The notes below the pieces were generated by a model. It did not search any database. It saw nothing but the letters and a program-made list of their open reading frames with translations, and had not been told where the DNA came from. The translations under genes were made by a program, and so were the position numbers. Shown piece by piece: positions 9,090-37,722 of a stretch of 64,000 nt of DNA (position 1 is the first letter of the stretch; the number at the start of each line of letters is the position of its first letter). Source of the DNA: an uncultured Ruminococcus sp. (lineage in GTDB: Bacteria > Bacillota > Clostridia > Oscillospirales > CAG-272); NCBI GenBank assembly GCA_964621165.1, contig CAZULC010000003.1, forward strand, positions 30,633-94,632. The letters are read 5' to 3'.

Positions 9090-9869
9090 ATGAGTAATAT
9101 TAACGTATTTACATACAATCTCAGAATGGACAACCGGGGAGACGGAATCAACGCTTTCTCCTCGCGGAAGGATTATATCAAAAAGACCTTTCCAAAGTAC
9201 AATGCCGACGTCATAGGCTTTCAGGAGGTTCTCCCTCACATGAGACAGTGGCTGATAGATAACTTCACCGACTACGAAATCTGCGGAGTTGGCAGGGGAG
9301 CGAACCTTGACGACGAGAGCAACGTTGTGGCGTACAGAAAGGACAAATTCGACCTTGTATCATTGGAAACCTTCTGGCTTTCTGACACACCGCGCCGTCC
9401 CGGAACAAGATTCTCCACCGACCAAAGCCCATGCCCGAGAATCTGCACCTGCACAACCCTCTACTCAAGGGAAGCCAAAAAGGTGTTCCGCCACTACAAT
9501 ACCCATCTCGACCACGAAGGAGCCTTCGCTCAGGCACAGGGAATATCCCTGATTCTCGGCAGGATCGCTTCGGACTACGACTCATGGGCGCTCCCTGTAA
9601 TCCTCACCGGAGACTTCAACGTAACGCCGGACAGCGTTGTAATAAAGTCAGTCTCGAACTTCTCAGGTTGCGGGGAAAAGCTCATTGACGTGACGTCGGG
9701 CATCACCGGAACCTTCCACGGCTACAAGCCTGAAAAACGCCTGACTAAAATCGACTATATCTTCACAAACCTGCCTTGCGACAAGTCTAAGACCCATGTC
9801 GCCGACGACTGCGAAAACGGAGTCTACCTCTCCGACCATTATCCCGTAGGAGCCGCGGTGGAGATATAA
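9090..9869 (+). CDS. endonuclease/exonuclease/phosphatase (EEP) family protein
   Basis: 259 aa: VFTYNLRMDN..., GFQEV, TGDFNVTPDS, LSDHYPV, the characteristic EEP motifs. Confidence 0.8.
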   Translation: MSNINVFTYNLRMDNRGDGINAFSSRKDYIKKTFPKYNADVIGFQEVLPHMRQWLIDNFTDYEICGVGRGANLDDESNVVAYRKDKFDLVSLETFWLSDTPRRPGTRFSTDQSPCPRICTCTTLYSREAKKVFRHYNTHLDHEGAFAQAQGISLILGRIASDYDSWALPVILTGDFNVTPDSVVIKSVSNFSGCGEKLIDVTSGITGTFHGYKPEKRLTKIDYIFTNLPCDKSKTHVADDCENGVYLSDHYPVGAAVEI

Positions 9870-9939
9870 ATATAATACCACATTTTTGCAAAGAAGTAAA
9901 CAGAACCCAAAAAATTATCATCATACGGAGGTGCAGCTC

Positions 9940-10458
9940 ATGAAATGCCCAAGGTGTTCATGTACTGACAGTATAGTTGTAGACAGCCGGCCTGTGGAAG
10001 AGAATAACAGTACGAGGCGAAGACGTGAGTGTACTGCCTGCCACTTCCGTTTTACAACGTACGAATTTATAGACAACCTCAGCCCCATTGTCATCAAAAA
10101 GGACGGCTCCCGGGAACTATTCGACAAAAATAAAATCCTGTCGGGACTCATAAAAGCTTGCAATAAACGTCCGGTTGACGCGGTGAAGCTGGCAAACGAC
10201 ATTGAAGCCGAAATCAAAAGCTCCATGAAGACCGAAATCAAGTCAAAGAAAATCGGCGATATCGTGATGGAAAAGCTCAAGCAGCTGGATGACGTGGCAT
10301 ACGTGCGCTTTGCCTCAGTCCACCGGGAATTCAAGGATATAGAATCCTTCGCCGCGGAAATCACCAACCTGAAACGTGAAAAAGAGAAAGCCACACACGA
10401 CTTTGACTCCGACGAGGATGGAGATGGCAGAAAACGCCGCCGTTCGACGAAAAAGTAA
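9940..10458 (+). CDS. nrdR: transcriptional repressor NrdR
   Basis: MKCPRCSCTDSIVVDSRPVEENNSTRRRRECTACHFRFTTYE zinc ribbon plus ATP-cone. Start moved to ATG 9940, behind the GGAGGTG RBS. Has an acidic/basic C-terminal tail. Confidence 0.9.
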   Translation: MKCPRCSCTDSIVVDSRPVEENNSTRRRRECTACHFRFTTYEFIDNLSPIVIKKDGSRELFDKNKILSGLIKACNKRPVDAVKLANDIEAEIKSSMKTEIKSKKIGDIVMEKLKQLDDVAYVRFASVHREFKDIESFAAEITNLKREKEKATHDFDSDEDGDGRKRRRSTKK

Positions 10459-10462
10459 CTTA

Positions 10463-11001
10463 TGAAGTACACCATAAATCTGTATTTTGACAGGTAAACA
10501 GAGGAAAAACTGTCATATCTCGCAAAAAGTACAGCCGAAGAAACAGCCAGTGATAAAATTTCCGGATACAGCGTCCGACCATACCTCACATTAGCCTGCT
10601 TCAATGACGTTGACGAGCCGCAGTGTATAAGTCTGCTGAAAAGTTTTGCCAAAAGCCTTAAGGTCATATCCGTGAAAATCGGCTCCGTGGGAATGTTTAC
10701 CGACAGCAGCACTCTTTTCGGCATGCCAACCCTGACCGCCGGAATATTCCGTTTCCAAAGCGAGCTTCACGAAATCATGACGGACTTCGACAAAACCGGC
10801 TGGACCCTCTTTTGTCCTGACAACTGGTCGCCACACTGCACACTCGCATATACCTTGGAAGAAGGAAACGAAATCTTCCTCAGGGCGAGCAGGGTACTTC
10901 TGCAAAAATTCCGCCCCATGACAGGTGAGTTTTCGTCAATCGGACTTGTGAACATCACCCCTCCCGTAAAGGAAATCTTGGAGACCGAGTTGTCCCGGTA
11001 A
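10463..11001 (+). pseudogene. 2H phosphoesterase (LigT / 2'-5' RNA ligase-like) with in-frame TAA
   Basis: ATG 10463 gives MKYTINLYFDR, then TAA at 10496..10498. The same frame continues TEEKLSYLAK...RPYLTLA...PHCTLAYTLEE to 11001. The second HxTx motif is intact (HCTL) and the first is degenerate (YLTL). Confidence 0.7.
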
Positions 11002-11006
11002 AAATT

Positions 11007-11069
11007 CAAGCAATACTTGCAATAATACAAGCAATACTTGCAATAATACAAGCAATACTTGCAATAATA
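11007..11069. repeat. perfect tandem repeat, 3 x 21 bp (CAAGCAATACTTGCAATAATA)
   Basis: Units at 11007-11027, 11028-11048 and 11049-11069 are identical. Each contains a small CAAG-CAATA-CTTG hairpin. Sits between convergent genes. Confidence 0.95.
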
Positions 11070-11107
11070 AAGGAAGCCAGCCGCATCCACGGTAAAAAGC
11101 TTCCTTT
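11069..11107. terminator. bidirectional hairpin between convergent genes
   Basis: AAAGGAAGC (11069-11077) / GCTTCCTTT (11099-11107) with T/A runs on both sides. The loop is long (21 nt). Confidence 0.5.
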
Positions 11108-11131
11108 TATTATAATTATTATAATCGGGAT

Positions 11132-13954
11132 TCACTCGGCTTTCGTCTTTTTTGCCTGAACAATCGCCATAGCCGCCTTGCGAATGGTGTCAGCCGGAAT
11201 CACGGTCAGGGCAAACACCGCGCACAAAAGAAGATCGTCCACTCTCAGCGGCACACACCGGAAAACCTCGCCGCCGAAATATATAATCAACAGCTGAATC
11301 GCCGCCACCGCCGTCATAATGAACAGAAACGGCTTGTTCTTTCCCATGTTCGCGAACAGATTGATCCGCGGCGTTCGGGTACACATTGCAATCCCGATTC
11401 CCATAAATATAAACAAAGCGAAAAATAAAGTCAGATGATAAATATAATCCCCCGCGAACAAATGCTGCAAGCTCTTTGACATGAGAAAGTACATGGACAG
11501 CCCCACGGCGTAGGTTCCGGTCAGGATAATCTGGCAGACCATGGCGGAGGTCAGTATGTGCTCGTCACGCCGGACCGGTGGAATTTTCATGTATGCTTCA
11601 AGGGCAGGCTCACCGGCGAAGGCAAGGGAACCGAGAGTGTCCATGATGATGTTCACCCACAGCATCTGAATCACCGTGACGGGCGCGTCAATCCCGAAAA
11701 CCGTGCCGAGAACCGAAACTCCCACGGCAGCCATGTTCATGGTGAGCTGAAACGTGATGAACTTCCTGATACTCGAGAAAATCGTCCGCCCGAAGAGTAC
11801 GGCTTTGGTAATCGAGACGAAATTGTCGTCTGTTATCACAATATCACCGGCTTCACGGGCAATATCACTTCCGCTTCCCATTGAAAAGCCCACGTCCGCT
11901 GATTTGAGCGCCGGCGCGTCGTTGATTCCGTCCCCAGTCATCCCAGCAATGTGACCGGAAGCCTTGGAGAGACGTATGAGTCTGCTTTTGTCCATCGGAG
12001 TGACCCGGGATATGACCCTGATGTTCGGCAAAAGATAGGTGACCTGTTCGTCATCAAGCGAGCGCAAGTCATCCCCGTCTATGACAAGACTGCCGCATGC
12101 CTTGGTGAAGTGAGAAAAACTCTCCTTATTATTATATATAAGATAATTCTTCTCGAGGATTCTGCACTCCTCCGCGATTTTCCTCGCCGTGTCGCAGTTG
12201 TCTCCGGTAATCATCACCACCTGAATCCCCGCGCTCTTGCAATCCCGTATGGCTGGAATCACTTCCCGCCGGATTTCATCCTTGATAACGTACATCCCGG
12301 CAAAGGTCAGCTCTGCAGAGTCCAGCCCGCTCTTTTTCAGCCTGCCCATGACGGAAGCGTCCCCCTCAGCCGCCAACAGAATCCTGCATGAAGCTCCGGC
12401 TTTGGCTGATATCGCCGACTTGATTTTTCCGAGAACCTCGCCGCTCATGTGATTGACTTTACCGTCAGAGGTCAGATACGTCGTGCATTTCGGCAGAAGA
12501 TAGTCCGCCGCTCCCTGAACGTAGGTTTTACCTCTGTACAACGCCGCCGCGTACTTCCTTGACGAATCAAACATAATCCTCTCGCTTACGTCCTCTCCGC
12601 CGCCGGATATCCCGAGAAATTTGTTTATCGCCTTTTCAGTGGAGTTGTGTACCCCGGAGCAGGAATAGGCGCAGTTTTTCACGCTCTCGTAAACGCTCCC
12701 GCCAGAGGATGACAGTGCGGTCAGGGAATAATACTCCTGCCCCTCGGCTGAAATAATGCTGGACATGGTCAGCTTGCCCGTGGTCAAAGTTCCGGTTTTG
12801 TCCGTGAAGAGAATATCCACGCTTCCCGCAGTCTCGATTCCAACAAGCCGACGCACCAGAACGCTGGACTTCAGCATCTTCTGCATGTTCGACGACAGCA
12901 CCACCGTAATCATCATGGGAAGCCCTTCCGGCACCGCGACAACCACCACCGACACCGCCATGGTAAACGCCTTGATACATTCGGAGAAGACGTAACGGTA
13001 GTCCCGCAGTCTCTCGAGAGCCACAGTCGGATTCATTCCGGCTTCAATCCAGAACGCGTCAATCAGGTGAACCGCGGCGACAATTGCGGCTGAAACATAC
13101 CCGATTTTCGATATGGTTTTGGCGAGAGCCGACAGTCTTTCCTTCAGTGGACTTGCTTCGTCCACCCGTGAAAGCTCCCCTGCAATGGAGCCGTACATTG
13201 TGTTGTCCCCAACCGCCGTCACAAGCATAACCCCCGACCCGCCCGTGACATGGCACCCCTTGAACACCGCGCATCCGCCATGCTCATTTAACTTAAAATA
13301 AGCCGCGTCATTCCTGTACTTTTTTATAACAGAGTCCGCCGGAGTTTTTTCCACCTTCCTCGATTCCCCAGTCAAAGGAGCTTCGTCACAGCTGACCTTT
13401 CCCCGTACAAGAATCCCGTCCGCTGGAACAGTATCCCCGGGTGAGAGGACGACAATATCATGCCGCACCAGCTCCGACAAAGGAAGCGACACCTCACGCC
13501 CATCCCGTATGACCGCACATTTTCCTTCGTCAAGGGTAGAGTAAAGCTTTTCAAACGCCTTGCCCGAGGAATGCTCGGATATGGTGGAAACCAAGGCGGA
13601 AATCAGAACAGTAGCCGCGATACCGATGCTCTCAGCCCAGTTGAAATCGGAAAAGGTGAAGATGATGTTTATAACCAGCGCACCGATTAAAATCTTGATA
13701 ATGGGGTCGCTGAGATTTTTCAGAAAACAGATAAAAAATCCCGCCTGCTTTTTCGGTGAGATGGAATTGGAGCCGTATTTTTCCCGTGACTGCGCCGCTT
13801 CTTCACTGGTAAGTCCGACGGAAGGGGACGGAATAACATCCCGACTGACTCTGCCGTACCTTTCACGCCGAACGCCGGCCTCACCGTGCAGCTTTACTGT
13901 TTCATTCATTTGCTCACCGCGCTTCCTATAGTTTTCTCGATAGAGTATATTCAC
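11132..13954 (-). CDS. P-type (P2) calcium-translocating ATPase
   Basis: 940 aa with DKTGTLT phosphorylation site, VAVPEGLP, MITGDN and TGDGINDAPALK motifs, ~10 TM. Alternative start at 13909 (MNETV...). Confidence 0.85.
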   Translation of the reverse strand: MNILYRENYRKRGEQMNETVKLHGEAGVRRERYGRVSRDVIPSPSVGLTSEEAAQSREKYGSNSISPKKQAGFFICFLKNLSDPIIKILIGALVINIIFTFSDFNWAESIGIAATVLISALVSTISEHSSGKAFEKLYSTLDEGKCAVIRDGREVSLPLSELVRHDIVVLSPGDTVPADGILVRGKVSCDEAPLTGESRKVEKTPADSVIKKYRNDAAYFKLNEHGGCAVFKGCHVTGGSGVMLVTAVGDNTMYGSIAGELSRVDEASPLKERLSALAKTISKIGYVSAAIVAAVHLIDAFWIEAGMNPTVALERLRDYRYVFSECIKAFTMAVSVVVVAVPEGLPMMITVVLSSNMQKMLKSSVLVRRLVGIETAGSVDILFTDKTGTLTTGKLTMSSIISAEGQEYYSLTALSSSGGSVYESVKNCAYSCSGVHNSTEKAINKFLGISGGGEDVSERIMFDSSRKYAAALYRGKTYVQGAADYLLPKCTTYLTSDGKVNHMSGEVLGKIKSAISAKAGASCRILLAAEGDASVMGRLKKSGLDSAELTFAGMYVIKDEIRREVIPAIRDCKSAGIQVVMITGDNCDTARKIAEECRILEKNYLIYNNKESFSHFTKACGSLVIDGDDLRSLDDEQVTYLLPNIRVISRVTPMDKSRLIRLSKASGHIAGMTGDGINDAPALKSADVGFSMGSGSDIAREAGDIVITDDNFVSITKAVLFGRTIFSSIRKFITFQLTMNMAAVGVSVLGTVFGIDAPVTVIQMLWVNIIMDTLGSLAFAGEPALEAYMKIPPVRRDEHILTSAMVCQIILTGTYAVGLSMYFLMSKSLQHLFAGDYIYHLTLFFALFIFMGIGIAMCTRTPRINLFANMGKNKPFLFIMTAVAAIQLLIIYFGGEVFRCVPLRVDDLLLCAVFALTVIPADTIRKAAMAIVQAKKTKAE

Positions 13955-24764: not shown

Positions 24765-25148
24765 ATGAAAACAATAGAACGCCTGCCAGATGCGGAGCTT
24801 GAAGTTATGCTGATTCTGTGGCACAATCAAACGCCAATGACCGCTGGAGACATAACAAAACTTCTCGCGGATACACACAGCTGGAAAAACGCAACGGTCC
24901 ATGTGCTGCTCGATCGGCTTGAAGAACGCGGATTCGTTTGCTGTGACAAAACCGGTTTCCGGCATCTGTTTGCGCCTGCCATATCGGAAGAAGACTACCG
25001 GCGGGGCGAGGAGCGGACTCTGATGAAGCGGTTTTTCGGCGGGTCTGCCAAGAACATGATTGCTTCATTGCTGAACACGGACGGTTTATCCGATGACGAC
25101 CTCGATGAACTGTCAGCAATGCTGAAACGTCGCAAAGGAGGAAACTGA
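24765..25148 (+). CDS. BlaI/MecI/CopY family transcriptional repressor
   Basis: 127 aa: LPDAELEVMLILWHNQTPMTAGDITKLL... winged helix. Its stop overlaps the start of the M56 gene (TGATG). Confidence 0.85.
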   Translation: MKTIERLPDAELEVMLILWHNQTPMTAGDITKLLADTHSWKNATVHVLLDRLEERGFVCCDKTGFRHLFAPAISEEDYRRGEERTLMKRFFGGSAKNMIASLLNTDGLSDDDLDELSAMLKRRKGGN

Positions 25149-28100
25149 TGGCAATTCGCGATTTTTTCATCGGCATTCTTGAATTGAACATCGGAATGTC
25201 GCTTCTGATTCTGCTCATGTTGGCACTGTTGAAGCTGATTGGCGGAAAATTTACGGCAAGATGCCGCTACATTTTGTGGACGCTCGTAATAATCCGGCTT
25301 GCCCTGCCATTTGGCTTCGGAATTCCTGCCATTATTGAGCTTCCAATTGGGGTGGAAACCCAGTCTCAGACGCCGGATGAACAGCAGCCTGTACAATACC
25401 CGCCGGATTACGCTCCCACATTTTCCGCATCTTCTGCTGTTCCCGTAACGACCGGCAAGCCGCTGCAGCTTCAGGAACCAGTAATGATTCCGGAGGTCCC
25501 CGAGACTGACCCGACGACTTCCGGACAAAATCAATCCATGACTTTGGAAAAAGCGGTAACATACTTGTCGTACCTGTATCTCACTGCGGCGGCGGTATAT
25601 CTTCTGTGGATTTTTCCTTCCTATTTATTATATACCTTTAAAATCACACGATGGGCAAAAGAGCCAGACGAAAGGACCCGGGCGGTTTATGATTCCGTTT
25701 GCGTCAATCAAAAAATCAGGCATGCACCGCGGCTTCTTATATCTTCTGATGTGAACAGCCCCATTGCCTTCGGACTTGTGAAAAGAAAAATCGTCCTGCC
25801 GGATATATTTCTCACGAATGAGGGGCTTGCGGGCACTTTGTCCCATGAACTGACTCACTGTAGGCGTGGAGATCTGTGGATCAAGGCTTTCTCGCTTCTT
25901 GCGCGGGCGTTCAACTGGTTCAATCCACTGGTTCACTGGGCCGCCATGCGTTGTGAAATGGAAATGGAACTGTCCTGCGACGAAGCTGTTCTTGCTGGGT
26001 GCGGAGAGGACGTCCGTGCGGCTTATGGTGATGTGATGCTCGACATAATACGTCAGTGCAGGCGCAAGGGCGGTGTGCTGACGACTCATTTCAATCCCAA
26101 AAAACGTGCGGTGAAGGCCAGATTTATAAATATAATGTACGGTTCGGGCAAGCGGCGGGGACTGTGGCTCATTGGGGCGTGCGTTGTACTGTGCGTGACA
26201 GCAGGAGCTGTTGTGGCGTGCAAAACTGTCAAACCGGATGAAAAACCTGACGCGGAAGCAGTTGACATGCCCGAAACCGATTCCGGCGAGAATCCAGAGG
26301 AAAACTCCGACGAGCTTGATTTGCTTGTCAGCAAAATTTACGAGCTCTCTCTCTCGCCCATCATGAAATGCTTTGCCACCGGATGCGGAAATGTGGAATA
26401 CGACATCAGCAGCTCGCAGTATACCGAAGACAACGAATACTATATAGTTACGGACCCATGGTTCGCTGAAGCCGGCGTCGACTCGGTGGAGTCATTGAGA
26501 AACTATCTCCTCGGCTATTTTTCACCTGAATATACCGACCGGTTGCTCGATTCCTCCGTCACCTTCCGGGATATAAACGGGAAGCTGTGTATTCATTTGT
26601 ATGACGGCGGTAACTCAGCCGTTTATGATTTCCCCGAATTTTCCGCGGAACACATAGATGACAGCAGAATCAGGCTGACCTGTTTATCAATCTGTAATAT
26701 GCCCCTCGTTGAGCCGGAGCCGTATCTGATGGAGTTTGAATTCGTTCAGACGGATGGCGGTTGGGTTATTGATGAAGCTCCGTCTTTGCTCGATTATTTA
26801 TGGATACGGTTCGGCGTGGAAAATGAGCTGACCGCCTCGCTTGTCGAAAAGATAAGTCAAGCCGCAGAGTCGCCTGTACTGAACTGCTTTGCCGTCGGTT
26901 GTCAGGCAGTCGGGCGCAGCGTTGAGAGTTCCGGCGTTCCTGATTACTATATGATCAATGATCAATGGTTCGAAGAAAACGGAATCAACTCAGTAAAGGC
27001 GGTGGAGGACTACCTGCTCACCAGCTTCACACCCGATTGTGTGGATAGACTGTTCTCGGAGAACCCAAGCCTTTTCAATGATATTGACGGACGCCTCTGC
27101 ATATCCGACTACGTGTCAGAAAATTCGGCTGTATATGAATTCCCAGACATTACGGCTTCATATACCTCAGACGACAAAATCTGTCTGACCTGCTACGTCA
27201 CACCGGGCGCGTCCTTCGAACATCCCGATCCATACAAGTTGTATTTTTACTTTGTCAAACAGGACGGCGAATGGCTGATTGATTACACGCCTTCGGTCAA
27301 GGATCTCGTAAGACTGCGCTTCAGTGAGAATATTTTGTGGGAATATAACGAGCTGTACGGAGAATTTCTCGCCACAGCTTTCGCGCCCTATACAAAGCTC
27401 CTCAGCGCGTCGGAATACCTTGACCTCGACTCAAACGGCGTACCAGAGCTGATCCTGCAGGATTTGGCTTATGGTGCATGCGAGATTTACACCATAGAAA
27501 ACGGAGAAGTCCGCGCCTTTTACAGTGGGGACAGCATTTTCACCCATTACTCCGACGAGCGAAAACCGCTGGCTCCACCGTCCGAAAACGCTAAAGACTT
27601 GATGTTTTACGGCGCCACAACGTTAATGTCCTCCGACATCCAGCCCACATTCCTACCCGCCGAGGAAAAGTCCACGGGGAGAAAAGGGTACATGCTCTGC
27701 TCCGTCTGGGGCAATGATATGACGTGTAACTGGGAATACTATTTCTTCACACAGGGAAGTGACGGCTTGCTGACGGTTGAACTTCTGGAAATATACCGCG
27801 CTGAGGCGGTGAACTCCAACACATCAAACGGCTGGGAATTCTACAGCGGACTTAATATGCTCTCGGGCAGTCAGTTTATGGCTGAGATAACCGAACTGTG
27901 GCGCAGCTTTGCCGACGAATACGGTGTGAGCTTCACGCAGGAGAACACAATGTGTCCGCTGACCCATCTGACTGAAAAGACTCCGCCAATCCACCTGCTG
28001 CTCGATATTCTTGAGTCCCTTGACGTGGATGAGCCAATGGTTCGTATCGCGAAAACAATACCGTCAACGCAAATGTCCATAAGTTCGGCCAATGGCTGGG

Positions 28101-28378
28101 GATTTGATGAAGCAAAGGAACTTGCAGGTCAGCTGCGTGAATTCAGTTATAAGCAGTCAGAGCAGTCAGAGGAGCCCGAAGACGCGCAGATTGCCGTAAT
28201 GTCGTCGACGGAACAGGATTTCTCGCTGTACTTCCACGAAAACTCCGACGTAGTGGAGATGAACCTTGACGGTGAGACATACGTCTTTGAAGCCGCACAG
28301 ATGACCGAAGAAACAGGATCAATCTTTGAAGCGGTGACAGCGTGGTTTGACGCAGCAGTTGAAAACGGGAAAAACTAA
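25148..28378 (+). CDS. BlaR1-like M56 metallopeptidase signal transducer with large non-PBP extracellular region
   Basis: 1076 aa with HELTHCRRGD (HExxH) in the M56 domain and 4 TM. The extracellular part has two ~150-aa internal repeats (residues ~395-545 and ~560-715) and no SxxK/PBP motifs. Confidence 0.8.
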   Translation: MAIRDFFIGILELNIGMSLLILLMLALLKLIGGKFTARCRYILWTLVIIRLALPFGFGIPAIIELPIGVETQSQTPDEQQPVQYPPDYAPTFSASSAVPVTTGKPLQLQEPVMIPEVPETDPTTSGQNQSMTLEKAVTYLSYLYLTAAAVYLLWIFPSYLLYTFKITRWAKEPDERTRAVYDSVCVNQKIRHAPRLLISSDVNSPIAFGLVKRKIVLPDIFLTNEGLAGTLSHELTHCRRGDLWIKAFSLLARAFNWFNPLVHWAAMRCEMEMELSCDEAVLAGCGEDVRAAYGDVMLDIIRQCRRKGGVLTTHFNPKKRAVKARFINIMYGSGKRRGLWLIGACVVLCVTAGAVVACKTVKPDEKPDAEAVDMPETDSGENPEENSDELDLLVSKIYELSLSPIMKCFATGCGNVEYDISSSQYTEDNEYYIVTDPWFAEAGVDSVESLRNYLLGYFSPEYTDRLLDSSVTFRDINGKLCIHLYDGGNSAVYDFPEFSAEHIDDSRIRLTCLSICNMPLVEPEPYLMEFEFVQTDGGWVIDEAPSLLDYLWIRFGVENELTASLVEKISQAAESPVLNCFAVGCQAVGRSVESSGVPDYYMINDQWFEENGINSVKAVEDYLLTSFTPDCVDRLFSENPSLFNDIDGRLCISDYVSENSAVYEFPDITASYTSDDKICLTCYVTPGASFEHPDPYKLYFYFVKQDGEWLIDYTPSVKDLVRLRFSENILWEYNELYGEFLATAFAPYTKLLSASEYLDLDSNGVPELILQDLAYGACEIYTIENGEVRAFYSGDSIFTHYSDERKPLAPPSENAKDLMFYGATTLMSSDIQPTFLPAEEKSTGRKGYMLCSVWGNDMTCNWEYYFFTQGSDGLLTVELLEIYRAEAVNSNTSNGWEFYSGLNMLSGSQFMAEITELWRSFADEYGVSFTQENTMCPLTHLTEKTPPIHLLLDILESLDVDEPMVRIAKTIPSTQMSISSANGWGFDEAKELAGQLREFSYKQSEQSEEPEDAQIAVMSSTEQDFSLYFHENSDVVEMNLDGETYVFEAAQMTEETGSIFEAVTAWFDAAVENGKN

Positions 28379-28733: not shown

Positions 28734-30561
28734 TTGTTCAAGCATAAGAAAAATCCCGATACCATAATGTTCACGGAGTCTTTGCCGCTGTTCGCCGCGT
28801 CAGTCAGACGGGTTTGGCGGATGGACAGGAAGTACATCCTTTTCTCCGACTTCGTCTACCTCCTCGGCACGGTCCCGCCCCTTCTGACCGCATACATCAC
28901 TGCGGTTTTCAACAAACGTTTAATCGCAGGCTAGCAGGCTTACCCGTCGTATTTCTGCGCGTTCTACCCACTCATCATAGCTTTCGCTGTATCTGTGCTG
29001 GAATTCGTTTTTTTCATGGTATGGCAGTGGGTCGGAAACCGCACATATGACCGGATTACTTCGATTCTTATGTGGGATTCGGTGAAAAAAGCGTCAAAAA
29101 TAGATTACGCCTCCTATGACAGTCCTGAATTCTACGACCGTATACAAAAAGGCTGGTCACTGGACGGGCAGCGGTTTGTCGCCAGCGCACAGAGCATTTT
29201 CAACACGCTGTCCTGTATTGCCGGGATGGCTGCGTATGCCGCGATTTTAGCCTATGTCGACTGGAAGCTGTTTTTGGTTCTGATCCTGCTGCGGATAGCA
29301 TTCACTCCGATTGACGAGAAAACCGGCAGGATGATCTACCGTTTCAACAACAAATTAGCCGAGCAGCGGAGGAAGGAGTCGTATTACCGCAGCTTTTTCG
29401 ACAACAAGGGAATGGCAGCTGAGGGCAAAATATTCGACCTCTACAGCTACGCACGGGAAAACTACATATCGGCGAACAAAAAGATATATAAGCAAACCTT
29501 TATATTTGAGCTTAAAATCAAGGGAATAAAGCTCCTGTCCGAGGTAATGTGGAATCTGCCAATCGCGGCGGTGTACATCTACCTGTCAGTCTGCGCGTAC
29601 AACGGCACGGTCAGCCTTGGGGACATGACAATGTGCATAGCGATGTATGTCGGCTTCATCAACCAGCTCTACAACACCATTGCCAACATAACGGGATTCC
29701 GAAACGACGCGGAAAGAGCGCGGTTTTCACGGGAATTTCTCGCTCCCCCCACAACAATCTGCGCCGATGGCGACGAATCAAAGCCAAAGGTTGACTCAGG
29801 TTTTGCCGGACATACGGTGGAATTTTGCGGCGTGTCCTTCGCATATCTCGGAATCGATAAGAAGGTTCTCGACAACGTCAGCTTTAAGGTTGGCTCCAAC
29901 AAAACCGTATCCGTAATCGGCGCAAACGGCGCAGGAAAGACTACACTTGTACATCTACTCATGCGGCTGTACGACCCCACCGAAGGCGTGATTCTGCTTG
30001 ACGGCAGGGATTTGCGCGAATACTCGGCGTCGAGCCTGTACGAAATTTTCGGCGTGCTGTTTCAGGACTACTGTGACTACGCCGTGAGCGCCTGGGAGTT
30101 CGTAACTCTGTCCACTGTCGAGCTGGATGTGAGTCGATTCAGCGACGCATTAAAGTCCTCTACATCATACAAATTCATAAATTCACTCAAAAACGGCATA
30201 AATACCGCCCCTGTCAAGTAGGTTCGACCCCGACGGAATCGAGCTGTCCGGCGGTTAGAAGCATCGGGTGGCACTTGCGCGGGCATATTACAAGGACGCA
30301 CCTGTCATAGTCCTCGACGAGCCGTCAGCCTCCATTGACCCGCAATCCGAGACGGAGATTCTCGCGTCCGTGAAAATGCTCCACGGCAAGCGGAATATCT
30401 GGCTCATTTCCCACCGGCTCAGCACCTGCGTCATTTCCTATTTGGTTCTGCTGCTGAAGGACGGCAGGCTTATCGGAAACGGTTCGCACGACGAGCTGAT
30501 GGAAAACAACGACGAGTACCGCCGTATGTTCAGACTCCAAGCCGACAGATATGAGGTGTAA
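28734..30561 (+). pseudogene. ABC exporter, fused permease/ATPase (pair A, gene 1), disrupted
   Basis: TTG start behind AAGGTG. In-frame TAG at 28932-28934, a +1 frameshift near 30200-30221 (GINT|PLSSRFDPDG), and an in-frame TAG at 30256-30258 exactly at the Q of the LSGGQ signature (IELSGG*KHRVALARAYYKDAPVIVLDEPSASIDP). Walker A GANGAGKTT is present. Confidence 0.8.
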
Positions 30562-30563
30562 TT

Positions 30564-32351
30564 ATGATTAATAAAAAAGCAATATCCGCTATATCCTGAG
30601 CCTAGCATTCGACAAAAGTCTGTGGTTCATCCTGATTATCCCCGTCTGCTCCATCATCGCGGGTCAGAGAGCTGTGGCGTCCAGTTGGCTCAGCGCACAG
30701 ATTTTTAATAAGCTCCAGCTTATAGTTACGGAAAATCACGACCCGGCTCTGCTGTATGACGCCATAATTTTCGGAATCCTGCTGTCGTTCACCACAATAG
30801 TGGTATGGCTCCTTAATACCGTATCGGGTCTCACAGAAAACCACTGGCGGGAGCACGTCAACTTATAAGTGCAGGAAAAATTCCTCGAGCGGGACTATAA
30901 AAGTGACATCGCGGACTTCGACAACCCTGATTTTCAGAACCGCCGCTCCGTCACCAAGAGAGTTGACCCCATAGGCGAGATCAAAACGGTCATCGACTGC
31001 CTAAGCGGGATTTTCGCAGCCCTGTCATTCACCGTGATTCTGTGGAATTACAGCCCCATCATGTTCATCGCCGCCGTTTTTGTGAAGCTGCCCACGTATT
31101 TTCACAAAAATTCACTCATGAAGGAGCGCCGGCAGTTCCGTATTTCCTCGGATGTACTGTGGCGTGAGAAGAACTATTATCGCGGCATTCCTGTATCCCG
31201 TTAAGAAGCGAAGGGATTCAAAATCTTTGACATGAAATCCTACGTCTGCGACAAATACGACGACGCGGTTGAGCGGTATTTCAAGGCGTACAGAAGCCAG
31301 TTCGTCAAAAATAAAACGAACATCGGAATCGACGACCACTACTCCGAGCTGATTACGGTTGTCGTTGAAATTATCGTGGGAACCTCGGTTTTCACGGGGA
31401 AAATGATGGTAGGCGACTTCACCCTCGTCGTTGCCGCGTTCAATAACTTGTCAGGCTGCGTTTGGAAATCTCGTCGGATTCGCGGCACAGCTGAATGATA
31501 TGCGGGATCAAAACAATATGCTTCGTGACTACCTTGAAGACAAGGCAATTTTCGACAGAGGCGAAGAATCCGGCATGGAAGTAAAGGAAGGCGCACACAC
31601 GATTGAAGTAAGAAACCTGTGCTTCACCTACCCCGGAGGTGACAAGCCTATTTTCTCGGACCTAAGCCTGACCATCTCCGCCGGCGAGACATGTGCTCTT
31701 GTCGGACTGAACGGAAGCGGAAAGAGTACGTTTGTCAACATGCTCCTGCGACTGTACAAGCCTGACAGCTGGGAAATCCTCCTTGACGGCGTGAATATCG
31801 AAAAATACGACGTCCATTCCTACTATAAAGCGATCGCATGCGTGTTCCAGAGCACCACAAAATACGCCATGCCCATCCGTGACTACATCGCGTCGGGAAA
31901 GGACTGCGACATAGACAGAGCAAAAGCGGCGGTCAACGAGGTTAGACTGGGCGATTGGTGCAGGGAACTGCCTCACGGATTGGACACCATGCTGACCTGC
32001 CCGTTTACGTCTGAGTCCGATTCAGTGGAGCCGTCAATTGGACAATGGCAGAAGCTTTCGATTGCCCGTGCAATATACAAGGACTCGTCAATTATGATTC
32101 TAGACGAGCTATCAGCCAGCCTCGACGTTGACTCGGAAAACGTGATTTTTAGCTATATAGAGCGTCTGTTCGCTAAGAAAACGGCACTGCTGATCTCCCA
32201 CAGACTGTCAAATGTGGTCGGATGCGATAAAATCTTTCTGATCATCGGCGGTCGATTGGTAGAAGAGGGAAGTCACCGCGAGCTTATGGAAAAACGCAGA
32301 CGTTACGCCGAGTTGTTCATGTCACAGGCGGAGATGTACAAAGCCGGATAA
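30564..32351 (+). pseudogene. ABC exporter, fused permease/ATPase (pair A, gene 2), disrupted
   Basis: ATG 30564. Frameshift in the A6 run 30573-30578, in-frame TAA at 30866-30868 and at 31202-31204, and a frameshift near 31450. The NBD (GLNGSGKST ... MILDELSASLD) is otherwise readable. Confidence 0.8.
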
Positions 32352-32478: not shown

Positions 32479-32507
32479 TTGACATCCGCAAAAACCAATG
32501 CTATAAT
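32479..32507 (+). promoter_or_regulatory. consensus sigma-70 promoter of the two-component genes
   Basis: TTGACA (32479-32484), 17 nt, TATAAT (32502-32507). Confidence 0.7.
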
Positions 32508-32539: not shown

Positions 32540-33241
32540 ATGAACCTGAAAATAGCAATCTGCGACGACGACGCAACCCAGCGGACATATCTACAAGACA
32601 TCCTCATCCCGTGGGCAAAGCGAAACCGCCATCTTATTGAAATCAAACAATACGCAAATGCAAAACAATTCTTCTTTGACTATGATGAAGAAAAGGACTT
32701 CGACATACTTCTTCTCGACGTGGAAATGCCGGAGGTGAACGGAATTGAGGTCGCGAAACGGGTGAGAGAGAAGAATTCCACCGTCCAGATTATCTTCATC
32801 ACCGGGTATTACGAGTATTTCAGCGACGGATTTGACGTCTCAGCTCTCCATTACCTCATCAAACCCGTGGATAAAGCTAAGCTATGCCCCGTGCTGGACA
32901 AAGCTGCGGACAATCTACTCTGCCGTCAGCGTTCGGTTCTTGTCTCCACCCCGGATGAGGACATAAAAATCTCTCTCGCCGACATCTGCTACGTGAATTC
33001 GGAAAATGTCTACGTCAACGTCCACACGGTTCACGGAAATCATCGTACACGAATGACCCTCGCAAAATTCGCCGAGCAGCTTGATGGAACCTTTTTCAAA
33101 ATCCACCGCTCATACATAGTCGGGTTGAAATACGTTAAAAAAATCTCACGCAGCGAGGTCACAATGTTAAACGGCGACGTACTGCCAATCAGCCGGGGAC
33201 TGTACGACGAGATTCACGCCGCGGTAATCAAGTATCTTTGA
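32540..33241 (+). CDS. LytTR/AlgR family response regulator
   Basis: REC domain (IAICDDD...LLLDVEMPEVNGIEV) plus LytTR DNA-binding domain (FFKIHRSYIVGLKYVKKI). Confidence 0.9.
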   Translation: MNLKIAICDDDATQRTYLQDILIPWAKRNRHLIEIKQYANAKQFFFDYDEEKDFDILLLDVEMPEVNGIEVAKRVREKNSTVQIIFITGYYEYFSDGFDVSALHYLIKPVDKAKLCPVLDKAADNLLCRQRSVLVSTPDEDIKISLADICYVNSENVYVNVHTVHGNHRTRMTLAKFAEQLDGTFFKIHRSYIVGLKYVKKISRSEVTMLNGDVLPISRGLYDEIHAAVIKYL

Positions 33242-33250
33242 GGTGCATGC

Positions 33251-33895
33251 ATGATTTTAGACAAGCTAATATCAAAACGGGTCGCCGCCTTTGAACAGGA
33301 ACTTCTACAGAAGTATTACGCCGAGGTCGAGAACATGTACGACAAAATGCGCGGCTGGCGTCACGACTACCGGCACCACATCCAGACCATGAAGGTCCAC
33401 ATGGCAAACGGCGAGATTGAGGAAATCGGGCGTTATCTCGACATGCTCGACGACGACCTGACCAACGTGGAAACCGTAATCAAAACCGGCAACCGCATGG
33501 CTGACGCAATCCTCAACAGCAAGCTCTCCCTCGCCGCCCAAAAGGACATAAAGGTCAAAGCGGAGGCGAAAATCCCCGTGTCCCTTTCCGTTTCCGAGAT
33601 TGATTTGTGCGTGGTAATCGGCAACCTGCTCGACAACGCCATCGAAGCCTGCATGGAGCTTCCGCCAAAGGAGCGGCTGATTCGGATTTACATGGAGATG
33701 AAGGGAAACTATCTCTACATTGCTCTGACCAACACCGCCGCCAGAAAGAAGAAAAGCAGCTTCCGCACGACAAAGGGCGACGGTCACGGCTTCGGCATAA
33801 GCCGGGTGGACGCGGTGGTGAAGAAGTACGGCGGCTACGTCACAAGAGCGTCGGAGGACGGGGCTTTTTCCACCGAGGTCCTGCTTCCGATGTAA
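33251..33895 (+). CDS. AgrC-type (HPK10) histidine kinase core without transmembrane or sensor domain
   Basis: 214 aa. H-box WRHDYRHHIQTM, N-box IGNLLDNAIEA, G-box GDGHGFGISRV. No hydrophobic segment. Starts 10 nt after the RR stop, behind a GAGGTG RBS. Confidence 0.8.
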   Translation: MILDKLISKRVAAFEQELLQKYYAEVENMYDKMRGWRHDYRHHIQTMKVHMANGEIEEIGRYLDMLDDDLTNVETVIKTGNRMADAILNSKLSLAAQKDIKVKAEAKIPVSLSVSEIDLCVVIGNLLDNAIEACMELPPKERLIRIYMEMKGNYLYIALTNTAARKKKSSFRTTKGDGHGFGISRVDAVVKKYGGYVTRASEDGAFSTEVLLPM

Positions 33896-33921
33896 AATAA
33901 ACAAAAAAATGCAATTGACAA

Positions 33922-33978
33922 CAAATTTCAGACATTTGGCATCAAATTGCACTTTTTCATTTCCGGAAATGTTATAAT
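33922..33978 (+). promoter_or_regulatory. candidate LytTR operator (direct repeats) plus extended -10 promoter
   Basis: CAAATTTCA (33922-33930) and CAAATTGCA (33943-33951) match 8/9 and start 21 bp apart (9-bp repeat plus 12-bp spacer). TGtTATAAT at 33970-33978 lies 21 nt downstream. Confidence 0.5.
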
Positions 33979-34073
33979 GTAGTCAAGAGGTGCGGCGTGA
34001 AGATATAGTTGATCACAGTTTATTTAGCTGTCAGCCGACCGGAATTCTTTCATATCTATTTGTGGAGGAGAAA

Positions 34074-35894
34074 ATGAAAACCAAAAAAGAAAAACGAAAG
34101 TATTCACGCATTGACTCAATCCTGTTTGGAATGAAATGGATGTGGAAATTCGACAAAAGTTTTATATTCTATGTATTTTCCAACATTCCGTTAATAATAA
34201 TCATTCCCCTCGCGTCTTCCTATTTCACGAAATACCTTATAAACGCGCTGGAACGCGGGGCGGCATTCAAGGAACTCGCGCTGATTGTAGCCGGCTTCAT
34301 CGGGGGAATCATGCTTCTCAATTTTTTAGACATGCTTTTATCCACGCGCCTCGGTGCAAAAACTTATTATCCGACTATGATTTGTCAGACAGAAATGAAC
34401 GCGATTGTTAACAAAGAAAAGGACTATGAAAACACCGAAAAGCAGGATTTCAAGAAAGCATATCAATATTCTTACAATGACGCTTGCAGTGGGAACTGCG
34501 CATTGGAGACTGTCTGGAAGGATATTTCCAATTTTTTGGTCTCCCTCCTCGGAATCGGCGTGTACGGCTCACTGCTGGGACTGCTCAACCCCATACTTTT
34601 CGCTGTCGTTGTTGCTGTGTCAATTGCGTCGTACTACACAACCCGCTGGGAGAGCCTGTATTATGAAAAGCACAAGCATATGTACGAAAAGGAACAGCGC
34701 AAGCTCAGCTATCTCAAGGGACTATCGGAAAACTTTTCCGTCGCAAAGGATATAAAGCTCTACGGCATGGAGTCGTGGCTAGACAAAATGGTGCGGGATT
34801 ACCAGATCTACGTCCTCATGTGGGAGAACAGATGCAGTCTTCGGGGCGTTTTCGCTTCCATTTTTTCGGGAATCATGAGCTTTGTGCAGAACAGCGTGGC
34901 TTATATAGTACTCATCGGAACATTGTTTTCCGGAGGTATGTCAGTGGGCGACTTCGTGTTCTACTTCGGTATAGTCGGCAGCATTGCCGGATTTCTCACC
35001 GGAATCATCACAGGCATCGCAAGACTTAACAACCGCGCCGAGAAAATCGACTACTACCGGGATTTCTTCGCATATTCCAACGTAATGAACTACGGAAAAG
35101 GCTGCGAGCTGCCTGAAAGTGCGGTCAAAATCGAGCTTCGCGACGTGTGGTACCGTTACGACGGAGCCGAGGACTACACCATCAGGGGAATCAACCTGAC
35201 TATCGACTCTGGTGAGAGCCTCGCACTTGTGGGCATGAACGGCGCGGGTAAAACCACGCTAATCAAGCTCATCTGCGGCTTCTATCTTCCTACAAAGGGT
35301 GAAATCCTCGTAAACGGCAGGAAAATCGAGGAATATAACATAAACGAATACTATTCCATCATATCCGCCGTGTTCCAGAAAATCAACCCCGTCGCCTTTT
35401 CCATATTTAATTTCGTGGCGAGCTCTGACCTGACCCGGGAAAACGCCCGTGAGGAAGCAATAGACGCCATGAAGAAAGCCGGAATCTGGGAGAAAATCGA
35501 GAGTCTCGAGTACGGAATCGACACCCACCTGATGAAGGGTATATACGACGACGGCGTGGATTTGTCCGGCGGGGAAATGCAGAAGCTGGTTCTGGCGCGG
35601 GCAATCTACAAAAACGGTCACATCCTCATCCTCGACGAACCCACCGCAGCCCTCGACCCAATCGCGGAAAACAACCTGTACCTGCAATACCGCGCACTGA
35701 CAAAGGAAAAAACCTCAATCTACATCTCACACCGCTTCGCCTCCACAAAATTCTGCGATAGGATTGTACTGCTTGAGGACGGCAGAATCACGGAAAGTGG
35801 CACACATGACGAGCTGATGAATCTGAACGGACGGTACGCGTATATGTTCGGCGTTCAGGCAAAATATTACAGGGAGGGCGAAAAAAATGCTTAA
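34074..35894 (+). CDS. ABC exporter, fused permease/ATPase (pair B, gene 1), intact
   Basis: Start ATG 34074 behind GGAGGAG. 6 TM region, Walker A GMNGAGKTT, LSGGEMQKLVLARA signature, ILILDEPTAALD Walker B. Confidence 0.85.
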   Translation: MKTKKEKRKYSRIDSILFGMKWMWKFDKSFIFYVFSNIPLIIIIPLASSYFTKYLINALERGAAFKELALIVAGFIGGIMLLNFLDMLLSTRLGAKTYYPTMICQTEMNAIVNKEKDYENTEKQDFKKAYQYSYNDACSGNCALETVWKDISNFLVSLLGIGVYGSLLGLLNPILFAVVVAVSIASYYTTRWESLYYEKHKHMYEKEQRKLSYLKGLSENFSVAKDIKLYGMESWLDKMVRDYQIYVLMWENRCSLRGVFASIFSGIMSFVQNSVAYIVLIGTLFSGGMSVGDFVFYFGIVGSIAGFLTGIITGIARLNNRAEKIDYYRDFFAYSNVMNYGKGCELPESAVKIELRDVWYRYDGAEDYTIRGINLTIDSGESLALVGMNGAGKTTLIKLICGFYLPTKGEILVNGRKIEEYNINEYYSIISAVFQKINPVAFSIFNFVASSDLTRENAREEAIDAMKKAGIWEKIESLEYGIDTHLMKGIYDDGVDLSGGEMQKLVLARAIYKNGHILILDEPTAALDPIAENNLYLQYRALTKEKTSIYISHRFASTKFCDRIVLLEDGRITESGTHDELMNLNGRYAYMFGVQAKYYREGEKNA

Positions 35895-37722
35895 GGACAA
35901 CATTACACTGCGCGGACTGAAAATGTACTCCGGATATAACAAAAGATATTTCCCGCTGAAATTCATTCAGACCGTGTTCGGGAGCATCTCCCCCTACTTC
36001 AATCTGTGGATGTCCGCCCAAATCGTCACCTCGCTGTATGAAGGGAAGGAGAGGGAATACATCTTTACCCTTGTGACGATAACCCTCCTCGGTAACCTGT
36101 TTGTACATATTATGGGAGCGATTCTCGGCAGGTACGTGGGCATTGAATTCAAGAAGCTGTGCAACAATGAAAGCGCCGCCTTCAGCCATAAAACCGTGTC
36201 CCTCGATTACGATAAATTAGAGGACCCCGCTGTCCGCAAGCTGCGCAGAAAAATCATAGAAAACGCGTGTATCAACAACTACGGCGTCAAATCACTGCGC
36301 ATTAATATTGAAGGACTGTTCAACCGCTTTATAAATATTTTTTTCTCGGCGGTCCTCTTTATCGAGATGTTTTCCGAGATAGCCAAAGCGGGTTTTCAGC
36401 CCCTGTCCGTCATTCTTCTGATAGGGCTGGTCGGATTTATGGTTCTTTCAATTATATACGACAACTTTATACAAAAGCAAAAAGCGCAAACGAACAATCG
36501 GCTTGGAGACCTTCTCCTGCGCGAAAATGAGCTTGACAGAGGTCATCAGCTTGACGGAATGGACTGCCGCATATATAAGCAGCAGGATATATTGTCGCGC
36601 ATTGAAGCCAAAATAAACGAAGACCACTTTAAGATTTTTACAGCGGTAATGAAACAGAATATTAGATTCAGCTTACCGAGTTCTATTTTATATAAGGTGT
36701 CGGAGGTGTGCGCGTACCTGATAATCTGCTTATACTGCGGCATGGGTATTTTCCCAATCGGCGGCGTGATAAAGTATGTAGGGTACCTGAAACGAGTGAC
36801 CAATGATATTCAAAAAACCTTCTACCATTTTTCCGAGCTGAAAAACAACGAGCCATTCCTCAAGACCTATCTGGAATACTTTGAAATTCCAAACAGCATG
36901 TACCAAGGCTCACTGGCGGTGGAAAAACGCAGCGACAAAAAGTTCGACATAGAGTTTCGCGACGTCAGCTTCAAGTACTCCGGCTCGGACGAGTACGCGC
37001 TGAAGCATATCAATCTCAGCCTGAAGGTAGGGGAACGTCTGGCAGTGGTGGGCATGAACGGCAGCGGAAAAACTACATTTATTAAGCTTCTCTGCCGCCT
37101 GTACGACCCCACGGACGGGGAAATTCTGATGAACGACTTCAACATCCGCAAATATAACTACCGCGAGTATCTTGACATATTCTCGGTGGTGTTCCAGGAA
37201 TACACGCTTTTAGCGCTCCCCCTCGGAAACAACATCGCCTGCGATAAATCGTGGGACGAGGCAAAGGCTGAGCGGCTGATTGACGAGGTGGGCTTCGGCG
37301 GACGGTATTCGGAAATGCCGAAAAAGCTGGAAACTCCCTTGTACAAGAATTTCGACGAGGACGGCGTGAACATTTCCGGCGGTGAAGCCCAGAAAATAGC
37401 CCTCGCCCGTGCGCTGTACCGTGACTCGCCGTTTATAATCCTCGATGAACCCACGGCGGCACTGGACCCCATAGCGGAGGTGGAAATTTACTCAAAATTC
37501 GACAACATTGTCGGGGACAAGACCGCGATTTACATAAGCCATAGGTTGTCGTCATGCCGGTTCTGCGACAAAATAGCGGTGTTCGACCACGGCGAGATTG
37601 TACAGATTGGCACCCATGACGAGCTGCTCTCCGACGAAAAAGGGAAGTACTATGAGCTATGGAACGCTCAGGCGCAGTATTACACAAACCAAAAGAAAAG
37701 CGCTGTGAGTGAGATAAGCTGA
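35887..37722 (+). CDS. ABC exporter, fused permease/ATPase (pair B, gene 2), intact
   Basis: Overlaps the upstream gene by 8 nt. GMNGSGKTT, ISGGEAQKIALARA, FIILDEPTAALD. Confidence 0.85.
   Translation: MLKDNITLRGLKMYSGYNKRYFPLKFIQTVFGSISPYFNLWMSAQIVTSLYEGKEREYIFTLVTITLLGNLFVHIMGAILGRYVGIEFKKLCNNESAAFSHKTVSLDYDKLEDPAVRKLRRKIIENACINNYGVKSLRINIEGLFNRFINIFFSAVLFIEMFSEIAKAGFQPLSVILLIGLVGFMVLSIIYDNFIQKQKAQTNNRLGDLLLRENELDRGHQLDGMDCRIYKQQDILSRIEAKINEDHFKIFTAVMKQNIRFSLPSSILYKVSEVCAYLIICLYCGMGIFPIGGVIKYVGYLKRVTNDIQKTFYHFSELKNNEPFLKTYLEYFEIPNSMYQGSLAVEKRSDKKFDIEFRDVSFKYSGSDEYALKHINLSLKVGERLAVVGMNGSGKTTFIKLLCRLYDPTDGEILMNDFNIRKYNYREYLDIFSVVFQEYTLLALPLGNNIACDKSWDEAKAERLIDEVGFGGRYSEMPKKLETPLYKNFDEDGVNISGGEAQKIALARALYRDSPFIILDEPTAALDPIAEVEIYSKFDNIVGDKTAIYISHRLSSCRFCDKIAVFDHGEIVQIGTHDELLSDEKGKYYELWNAQAQYYTNQKKSAVSEIS

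Follow-up and report, generated by a model that had tools for sequence, protein, structure and literature searches.

An AgrC-like histidine kinase without membrane helices in a conserved regulator–kinase–exporter cassette of gut Clostridia

Histidine kinases of the HPK10 (AgrC-like) type are textbook membrane receptors for peptide pheromones. What, then, is a kinase of this type that has no membrane domain, and from where would it receive its signal? Such a protein is encoded in the 64,000-nucleotide (nt) stretch of contig CAZULC010000003.1 from an uncultured Ruminococcus sp. that we analysed (the window, in whose positions all coordinates are given), directly downstream of the gene for a LytTR-type response regulator (RR). 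An earlier reading of the letters alone, here called the sequence-only reading, had set two options side by side: a soluble kinase with an input that could not be named, or a truncation fixed in this lineage. Our comparison of protein families, structures and gene order favours the first. We give a probability of about 50% to the whole explanation that this is a functional cytoplasmic HPK10-type kinase which, together with its LytTR regulator, makes up the controlling half of a conserved cassette of four genes, the other half being a pair of ATP-binding cassette (ABC) half-transporters.

The kinase gene (33251–33895, + strand) encodes 214 amino acids (aa) with the H-box, N-box and G-box of an HPK10/AgrC-type enzyme, namely WRHDYRHH at residues 36–43, GNLLDNAIEA at 124–133 (33620–33649) and GDGHGFGIS at 178–186 (33782–33808). 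At the N-terminus, a linker helix whose hydrophobic residues recur in a heptad-like way (residues 1–35; 33251–33355, + strand) leads into the hairpin of the dimerization and histidine phosphotransfer (DHp) domain, which carries the H-box and His38 (residues 36–78; 33356–33484, + strand), and the catalytic and ATP-binding (CA) domain follows (residues 82–214 and the stop codon; 33494–33895, + strand). Pfam recognises HATPase_c_5 (PF14501) over residues 115–213 at 1.5e-22, while the DHp is covered by a sub-threshold SPOB_a-type match over residues 22–78. In the kinase alignment N129, G180, G182 and G195 never vary, and W36, R37, H38, D39 and Y40 vary little or not at all. The AlphaFold2 model (pLDDT 82) consists of a long helix over residues 2–52 that is kinked at His38, a return helix over 56–73 and an alpha/beta ATPase domain over 82–213. 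No PAS, GAF or other ligand-binding domain was recognisable in the kinase with Pfam. There are no transmembrane (TM) helices: the highest 19-residue Kyte–Doolittle mean, 1.54, stays under the usual cut-off of 1.6 and belongs to the N-box helix, a charged part of the ATPase domain and not a membrane segment, so that the description of a 214-aa kinase with all three boxes and no hydrophobic helix was borne out.

The space upstream of the gene is equally tight. Its ribosome-binding site (RBS), GAGGTG (33240–33245, + strand), overlaps the RR stop codon (33239–33241) and stands 5 nt ahead of the ATG at 33251; the distance of 10 nt that the sequence-only reading had given between stop and start was right in substance, with 9 bases lying between them (33242–33250). 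Its claim that the abutting RR gene leaves no room for a lost N-terminus also held, since the bases 5′ of the ATG, read in the kinase frame, encode the end of the RR and then its stop codon, and a hidden N-terminus reached through an upstream start or a frameshift is ruled out on the same ground. RR and kinase share a reading frame in the window, separated by the TGA and three sense codons (33239–33253); this is probably a coincidence, and a read-through fusion of the two is unsupported, as the gap varies from 2 to 12 nt among relatives. An antisense ORF (open reading frame) of 215 aa on the − strand (33305–33952) spans the whole kinase gene and is taken as the shadow of a strongly conserved coding region.

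The criteria for HPK10 kinases (PMC3353171, after Grebe and Stock) include a Tyr two positions after the phosphorylated His, an H-box free of Pro, and the lack of D- and F-boxes. Here the motif is His38-Asp39-Tyr40, with Y40 present in 97–100% of the sequences of all three TM classes described below; the H-box reads WRHDYRHHIQTMK, without Pro; and residues 134–177 (CMELPPKERLIRIYMEMKGNYLYIALTNTAARKKKSSFRTTK), between the N-box and the G-box GDGHGFG, contain on inspection neither DxGxG nor FxPF. The cognate regulator expected of the group is present as well, the neighbouring RR carrying PF04397, whereas the polytopic N-terminal sensor of 5–8 helices is represented by none. Among NCBIfam models AgrC is the best match, under that family's cut-off; the best sequence match in the PDB is 6E52, the AgrC kinase module (2e-9), with 4BXI also among the best solved relatives; and the top three Foldseek matches to the model are AgrC chimeras (6E52/6E95). 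These results support the assignment, already proposed by the sequence-only reading, to an HPK10 (AgrC-like) kinase cut down to DHp and CA. Chance is no explanation for such an ORF: its relatives are numerous, phmmer returning 14,583 representatives at E ≤ 1e-10, under such generic database labels as 'GHKL domain-containing protein' and 'sensor histidine kinase'. One position sets the close clade of the window kinase apart: the H-box reads WRHDYRHH in 117 of its 120 clusters, with residue 42 (33374–33376) being His, whereas the wider family has Asn at this place, four positions after the phospho-His, in 84–98% of sequences. In HisKA kinases the position four after the phospho-His matters for phosphatase activity.

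Is the short form a local accident? The best 120 clusters in a collection of 5.8 billion proteins are 81–100% identical to the kinase, and every one is 214 or 215 aa long. Against orthologues at 89, 82 and 75% identity the dN/dS ratios are 0.04, 0.06 and 0.09, values that point to strong purifying selection on the kinase orthologues; synonymous sites are close to saturation. A scan with one genome per species, many of them metagenome bins, yielded 80 loci with kinase relatives, from Lachnospiraceae, Acetatifactor, Oscillospiraceae, Faecalibacterium, Christensenellales, Defluviitaleaceae, Clostridium oryzae and others. In about 58 of these 80 species-representative loci the kinase has no hydrophobic helix and starts within 8 residues of the equivalent of the window's Met1; in one of them, L024, the maximal ORF extends far further upstream, yet without a hydrophobic helix. 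Had the protein been truncated locally, the sequence-only reading expected syntenic orthologues of ~430 aa and a deletion junction in this genome, and neither was found: syntenic orthologues are 214–220 aa long, and there is no junction. The constant length, the low dN/dS and the syntenic TM-less orthologues lead us to reject a truncation specific to this lineage, and the soluble-kinase option fits the evidence. In deep time the truncation option retains some truth, because more distant members of the cassette do carry one or 3–6 helices.

The other roughly 22 of the 80 loci encode exactly one N-terminal helix, which adds 21–30 residues before the same 'xxDRRIA' motif. Cultured bacteria are among the carriers: Faecalibacterium sp. 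An122 has the TM-less form and Clostridium oryzae DSM 28571 the single-TM form, and Lachnospiraceae bacterium IMSAGC_003 is a third. A metagenome scan seeded with distant relatives of 3–6 helices (325–450 aa) extended the family to multi-TM forms; no Pfam family was found in the membrane parts of the longer relatives. In a neighbour-joining tree of 140 kinase cores, the multi-helix forms lie at one end and a TM-less clade of 54 leaves, including the window kinase, at the other, with single-helix forms flanking this large clade and several small TM-less groups scattered among them, so the last helix seems to have been lost more than once, independently. The graded series from multi-TM through single-TM to TM-less kinases is, as we read it, a reduction from about six helices to one or none. 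The lone helix of the single-TM kinases is essentially unconserved, with a mean pairwise identity of 17% compared with 52% for the core in the same pairs; it looks like an anchor rather than a sensor. Immediately behind that helix begins the linker segment, and F/Y14, Q15, L18, E25, V26 and Y30 are conserved in kinases with no, one, and two or more helices. Homologues of these 35 residues stand before the H-box in every class, as the juxtamembrane linker in TM-bearing relatives, so the TM-less protein starts precisely where the signalling linker of those relatives leaves the membrane.

What has stayed constant while the membrane domain varied is the gene neighbourhood. On one strand the order is LytTR RR, HPK10-type kinase and two MsbA-like half-transporter genes, with a direct repeat in the spacer between kinase and ABC genes. 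In the window, the RR (32540–33241, + strand; 233 aa) matches Response_reg at 1.9e-18 and LytTR at 1.9e-20 in Pfam, and its translation shows the acidic pocket (CDDD), the aspartate in LLLDVEMP, the T in FITGY and the K in LIKP. ABC1 (34074–35894, + strand; 606 aa; ABC_tran at 9.6e-29) fuses membrane domain and ATPase in the manner of an MsbA-like exporter, and ABC2 (35887–37722, + strand; 611 aa; ABC_tran at 6.5e-27), which overlaps it by 8 nt, is its presumed heterodimer partner. A GTG at 33990 was dropped as the start of ABC1 in favour of the ATG at 34074, whose N-terminus, KEKRKYSRI, aligns with the first residues of the orthologues. In NCBIfam both proteins come closest to MsbA and to bacteriocin or type I secretion exporters, in each case far under the cut-off, and neither ABC1 nor ABC2 contains a C39 peptidase domain.

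Every close relative has two ABC genes of about 600–610 codons each 3′ of the kinase, and the arrangement recurs in three unrelated flanking contexts among these relatives, next to chorismate synthase, next to an arabinofuranosidase and, as in the window, next to a decayed ABC pair. The relatives with 3–6 helices are found in the same order of regulator, kinase, ABC and ABC. When ABC pairs were counted at loci whose downstream sequence extends for 4.2 kb or more, one followed 40 of 47 TM-less, 19 of 22 single-TM and 39 of 42 multi-TM (3–6 helices) kinases, or 98 of 111 related loci in total, and an RR preceded the kinase in 57/62, 27/27 and 57/59 loci of the three classes, respectively (141/148 together). 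On these gene maps the conserved unit is a four-gene cassette, widespread in gut Clostridia, within which only the membrane domain of the kinase varies. Some assemblies hold two cassettes (L015/L035, L014/L063, L061/L072 and L068/L079), the classes of which sometimes differ, as in Lachnospiraceae bacterium IMSAGC_003 with a TM-less (L061) and a single-TM (L072) cassette; this suggests paralogous modules with different specificities.

The target of the regulator is suggested by the 178-nt spacer between the kinase gene and ABC1. Two 19-nt direct repeats, CAATTGACAACAAATTTCA (33912–33930) and CATTTGGCATCAAATTGCA (33933–33951), lie there on the + strand 21 bp apart from start to start (33912–33951) as a candidate LytTR regulator site, followed by an extended −10 element of the ABC operon, TGTTATAAT (33970–33978, + strand), without a recognisable −35, where the sequence is CACTTT. 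Two repeats phased at 21 bp and abutting the −35 position are the layout of AgrA, ComE and other LytTR activator sites. We surveyed 106 non-identical kinase–ABC spacers over offsets of 12–33 with shuffled controls: 21 was the best direct-repeat offset in 65 of them, and at least 10 of 12 matches were reached at offset 21 in 53 of the 106, at any other offset in 0–8 spacers, and in 8 of 2120 shuffles. The letters of the repeat vary by clade (for example CAATTGACATCAAA, CAATTCGTCCCC and ACATTTCGTGCA), whereas the 21-bp phasing and the downstream extended −10 are kept, as would be expected from co-evolution of a regulator with its site; in relatives, a TGnTAnnAT element stands 20–30 nt past the proximal repeat. 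We infer that the ABC promoter depends on an activator and that the ABC operon would be the activated target of the RR.

A rather different promoter stands ahead of the RR–kinase operon (32479–32507, + strand), where TTGACA and TATAAT at a spacing of 17 nt, with a TG before TATAAT, match the consensus at 12 of 12 positions. No 21-bp-phased repeat lies upstream of the RR in the window, and as a negative control no 21-bp repeat peak appears upstream of the RR in 134 related loci. The operon thus looks constitutive rather than autoregulated, and autoregulation through the same repeats is rejected for want of any enrichment there. No terminator-like site was found between kinase and ABC1 in the window, and a search of the two spacers with Rfam found no known RNA element, the only match being a chance snoRNA inside the RR gene. 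The ABC1 leader of the window is about 90 nt long (33984–34080, + strand), and its second predicted hairpin pairs UUCUUUCAU with the RBS GGAGGAG (−24.2 kcal/mol, z = −1.9). In the closest relative, L012, the leader is much shorter, with ABC1 starting ~25 nt past the −10, so the hairpin is not a conserved feature of the cassette.

Taken together, the comparison shows an intact kinase kept by selection, a LytTR partner, a conserved cassette and a LytTR-type site ahead of the ABC genes. We infer from this layout how phosphotransfer, activation and coupling to the transporter might proceed. The RR–kinase operon would be transcribed constitutively from its consensus promoter, and read-through past the kinase, with no terminator in the way, would supply a basal level of transporter. 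A kinase dimer would autophosphorylate on His38 and pass the phosphoryl group to the RR, which in its phosphorylated form would bind the phased repeats and switch on the −35-less ABC promoter. Since no part of the kinase lies in or beyond the membrane, and the helix of its nearest relatives would be an anchor only, the signal must arrive in the cytoplasm, where it may be received by the DHp or by the linker helix that has been kept; the ATPase and intracellular domains of the exporter could then report substrate-driven cycling to the kinase. For this coupling step taken by itself, in which the co-conserved exporter is the most likely source of the signal, we put the chances somewhat short of even.

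A precedent for such coupling exists in the Bce modules, where BceS, a kinase without an input domain of its own, is controlled by the ABC transporter BceAB through flux sensing (PMC4513084, PMC10314905). Both systems tie an input-less kinase genetically to an ABC transporter, but the transporter has been shown to be the sensor in Bce modules and is only proposed to be so for the cassette. The cassette is not a Bce module, since all three component families differ: a BceS-type kinase with two membrane helices contrasts with a TM-less HPK10-type kinase, an OmpR-type regulator with a LytTR regulator, and a separate ATPase, BceA, with the ten-helix permease BceB and its large extracellular domain, with two fused MsbA-like half-transporters. 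We therefore put forward, more tentatively than the coupling step itself, that the cassette is a second, independently evolved transporter-coupled two-component system, in which a soluble AgrC-type kinase would dock through its N-terminal coiled-coil linker onto the cytoplasmic face of the heterodimeric exporter and read the transport cycle.

Several observations weigh against this proposal or against the comparison beneath it. The link between kinase and transporter consists here of gene adjacency and co-conservation, and regulators often adjoin their targets without being controlled by them. The membrane helices of BceS contact BceB (PMC10314905), which a TM-less kinase cannot imitate, so that a new interface must be postulated. 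When their ABC proteins are set against those of multi-TM cassettes, TM-less cassettes show no added domain or insertion but only four single-residue indel columns, and a compensating docking domain in ABC1 or ABC2 is rejected accordingly. Some loci break the pattern, two TM-less kinases lacking the ABC pair (L035 and L049) and two lacking the RR (L028 and L044, ~8000). The helix classes come from a simple hydropathy rule applied to maximal ORFs; the loci were picked by motif search and similarity ranking, so that the counts form no unbiased census; and the neighbour-joining tree is a crude one. At L035, the RR–kinase pair is followed by an ORF (9796–11487) whose N-terminus resembles a large serine recombinase and which may be an insertion.

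The absence of a class-specific docking feature would suit a soluble kinase that responds to a cue in the cytoplasm by itself, without the transporter, the ABC pair being a mere output. The cue might be the transporter's substrate after its entry into the cell, whether drug, peptide or lipid-like compound, or else some metabolic or redox signal, and its binding site could lie in the linker helix, the DHp or the ATP lid. Kinases of this soluble kind, with cues from the cytoplasm, are already recognised as a class (PMC3353171). The window kinase is itself cytoplasmic and keeps a moderately conserved 35-residue helix before its H-box, and some TM-less kinases persist without an adjoining ABC pair. 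Yet with neither PAS nor GAF, the roughly 35 residues of a single helix that lie outside DHp and CA offer little for specific ligand binding, and the existence of the same cassette with sensors of 3–6 TM helices implies that the ancestral signal was read at the membrane, the transporter's own location. We regard direct cytoplasmic sensing as unlikely on balance, although its chances are far from negligible. The kinase might, alternatively, be blind to any signal, phosphorylating the RR constitutively or according to its own abundance or to ATP, which would make exporter expression hard-wired or dependent on growth state. Isolated cytoplasmic modules of AgrC-type kinases can indeed autophosphorylate without their sensor domain, and the perfect consensus promoter of the RR–kinase operon would fit such a relay. 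A constitutive relay, however, would be expected to give way to a plain promoter, whereas kinase, RR and the activator-dependent promoter layout have been kept under strong purifying selection across dozens of species, and we give signal blindness only a small chance.

A split sensor, in which a membrane input domain encoded elsewhere in the genome docks on the N-terminal helix of the kinase, would account for an N-terminus that begins exactly where the membrane domain of the relatives ends, the pattern expected of gene fission. No gene for a small membrane protein lies between or beside the cassette genes, however, either in the window or on the maps of relatives in the three contexts, and the intermediates with a single helix point to a membrane domain lost step by step, not split off, so that this arrangement seems slightly less probable again than a signal-blind kinase. 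As for a decaying remnant, a full-length AgrC-like kinase recently truncated and fixed by chance, gene decay clearly occurs nearby, given the demonstrably decayed ABC pair just upstream. But a dying gene would hardly show dN/dS of 0.04–0.09, invariant catalytic residues and a length of 214–215 aa in 120 clusters; ~58 species representatives from several families share the TM-less form, and upstream of the gene there is neither a deletion junction nor any leftover sequence coding for a membrane domain. We consider decay very improbable indeed. Our preferred reading is the cytoplasmic kinase with its LytTR regulator as the control half of the exporter cassette.

Among known systems, the core of the kinase resembles most the AgrC/ComD/PlnB-type (HPK10) kinases that work with AgrA or ComE, sharing with them HATPase_c_5, a LytTR partner and two 21-bp-phased direct repeats at the target. 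Unlike the window kinase with no helix, the canonical sensors AgrC, ComD and PlnB have 5–8. Unlike an agr locus, the cassette was found to hold neither AgrB nor a gene for a peptide pheromone, nor an exporter with a C39 peptidase, and it shows no sign of autoregulation of the two-component system. AgrB was absent from the flanking genes of the window and from the Pfam-labelled maps of relatives; short propeptide (AgrD-type) genes were not searched for systematically. A distant relative of at most 35% identity has the classical layout of AgrB, a LytTR regulator and a 418-aa kinase, and annotated plasmid records contain only distant kinase relatives (at most 35% identity) in classical agr contexts or in those of ribosomally synthesised and post-translationally modified peptides (RiPPs).

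The nearest experimentally studied layout that we found is AtcS/AtcR of Treponema denticola (TDE0032/TDE0033), in which a kinase without an identifiable sensing domain is paired with a LytTR regulator (PMC12070737). In an atcS mutant the adjacent ABC transporter TDE0028-0029 is expressed at a lower level, and the authors suggest BceS-like sensing; AtcS is described as membrane-bound, unlike the TM-less window kinase, and its reported regulon is broad, taking in motility and many transporters (PMC12070737). We liken this pair to the cassette by description only, and it may be related to the cassette family. A looser precedent, for a two-component system controlling an ABC operon, is the NatK–NatR pair of Bacillus subtilis. 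Of the two, NatR is a LytTR-type regulator and NatK is embedded in the membrane; NatAB extrudes sodium and belongs to the ABC-2 type, so it is no MsbA-like half-transporter pair. NatK–NatR is cited as controlling the adjacent natAB ABC transporter operon (Ogura et al. 2007, as cited in PMC3498285). Full-text literature searches returned no description of the cassette or of TM-less HPK10 kinases.

The surroundings of the cassette in the window have features of their own. Directly upstream of the RR lies the decayed pair of MsbA-like ABC half-transporter genes (28740–32351, + strand). The first gene changes frame at ~30206–30235, within the ATPase domain, and the second is broken into at least 4 ORF fragments (30674–30868, 30869–31204, 31232–31498 and 31431–32351); identical breaks recur in L008, a Logan assembly made independently. 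In L027, L072, L078, L150, L025 and L047 the cassette is flanked by upstream or additional ABC pairs that are intact. Just upstream of the decayed genes (24765–28378, + strand), the gene for a BlaI-type repressor (127 aa, Penicillinase_R) precedes that for a BlaR1-type M56 peptidase of 1076 aa, which also carries an IseA-like endopeptidase-inhibitor domain. The two form an envelope- or antibiotic-sensing pair, and in its other contexts the cassette was not accompanied by it.

A large, conserved branch of HPK10 kinases that has no membrane domain and is locked to an ABC exporter pair means that an AgrC-type core can be driven by something other than a sensor of its own. Being small and soluble, the system is experimentally tractable, and the occurrence of 0-, 1- and multi-helix kinases in one and the same cassette provides a natural comparative series. 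If the exporter is the sensor, the 'need-based' logic of the Bce modules would extend to another kinase family, another regulator family and another transporter fold. If the kinase indeed docks on the exporter, the cell would induce the pump in proportion to need, and the series of six, three, one and no helices would record the hand-over of sensing from a receptor kinase to a transporter. An exporter that senses would also make the cassette an inducible efflux system widespread among the Lachnospiraceae and Oscillospiraceae of the gut, which might bear on tolerance of antibiotics, bile or bacteriocins.

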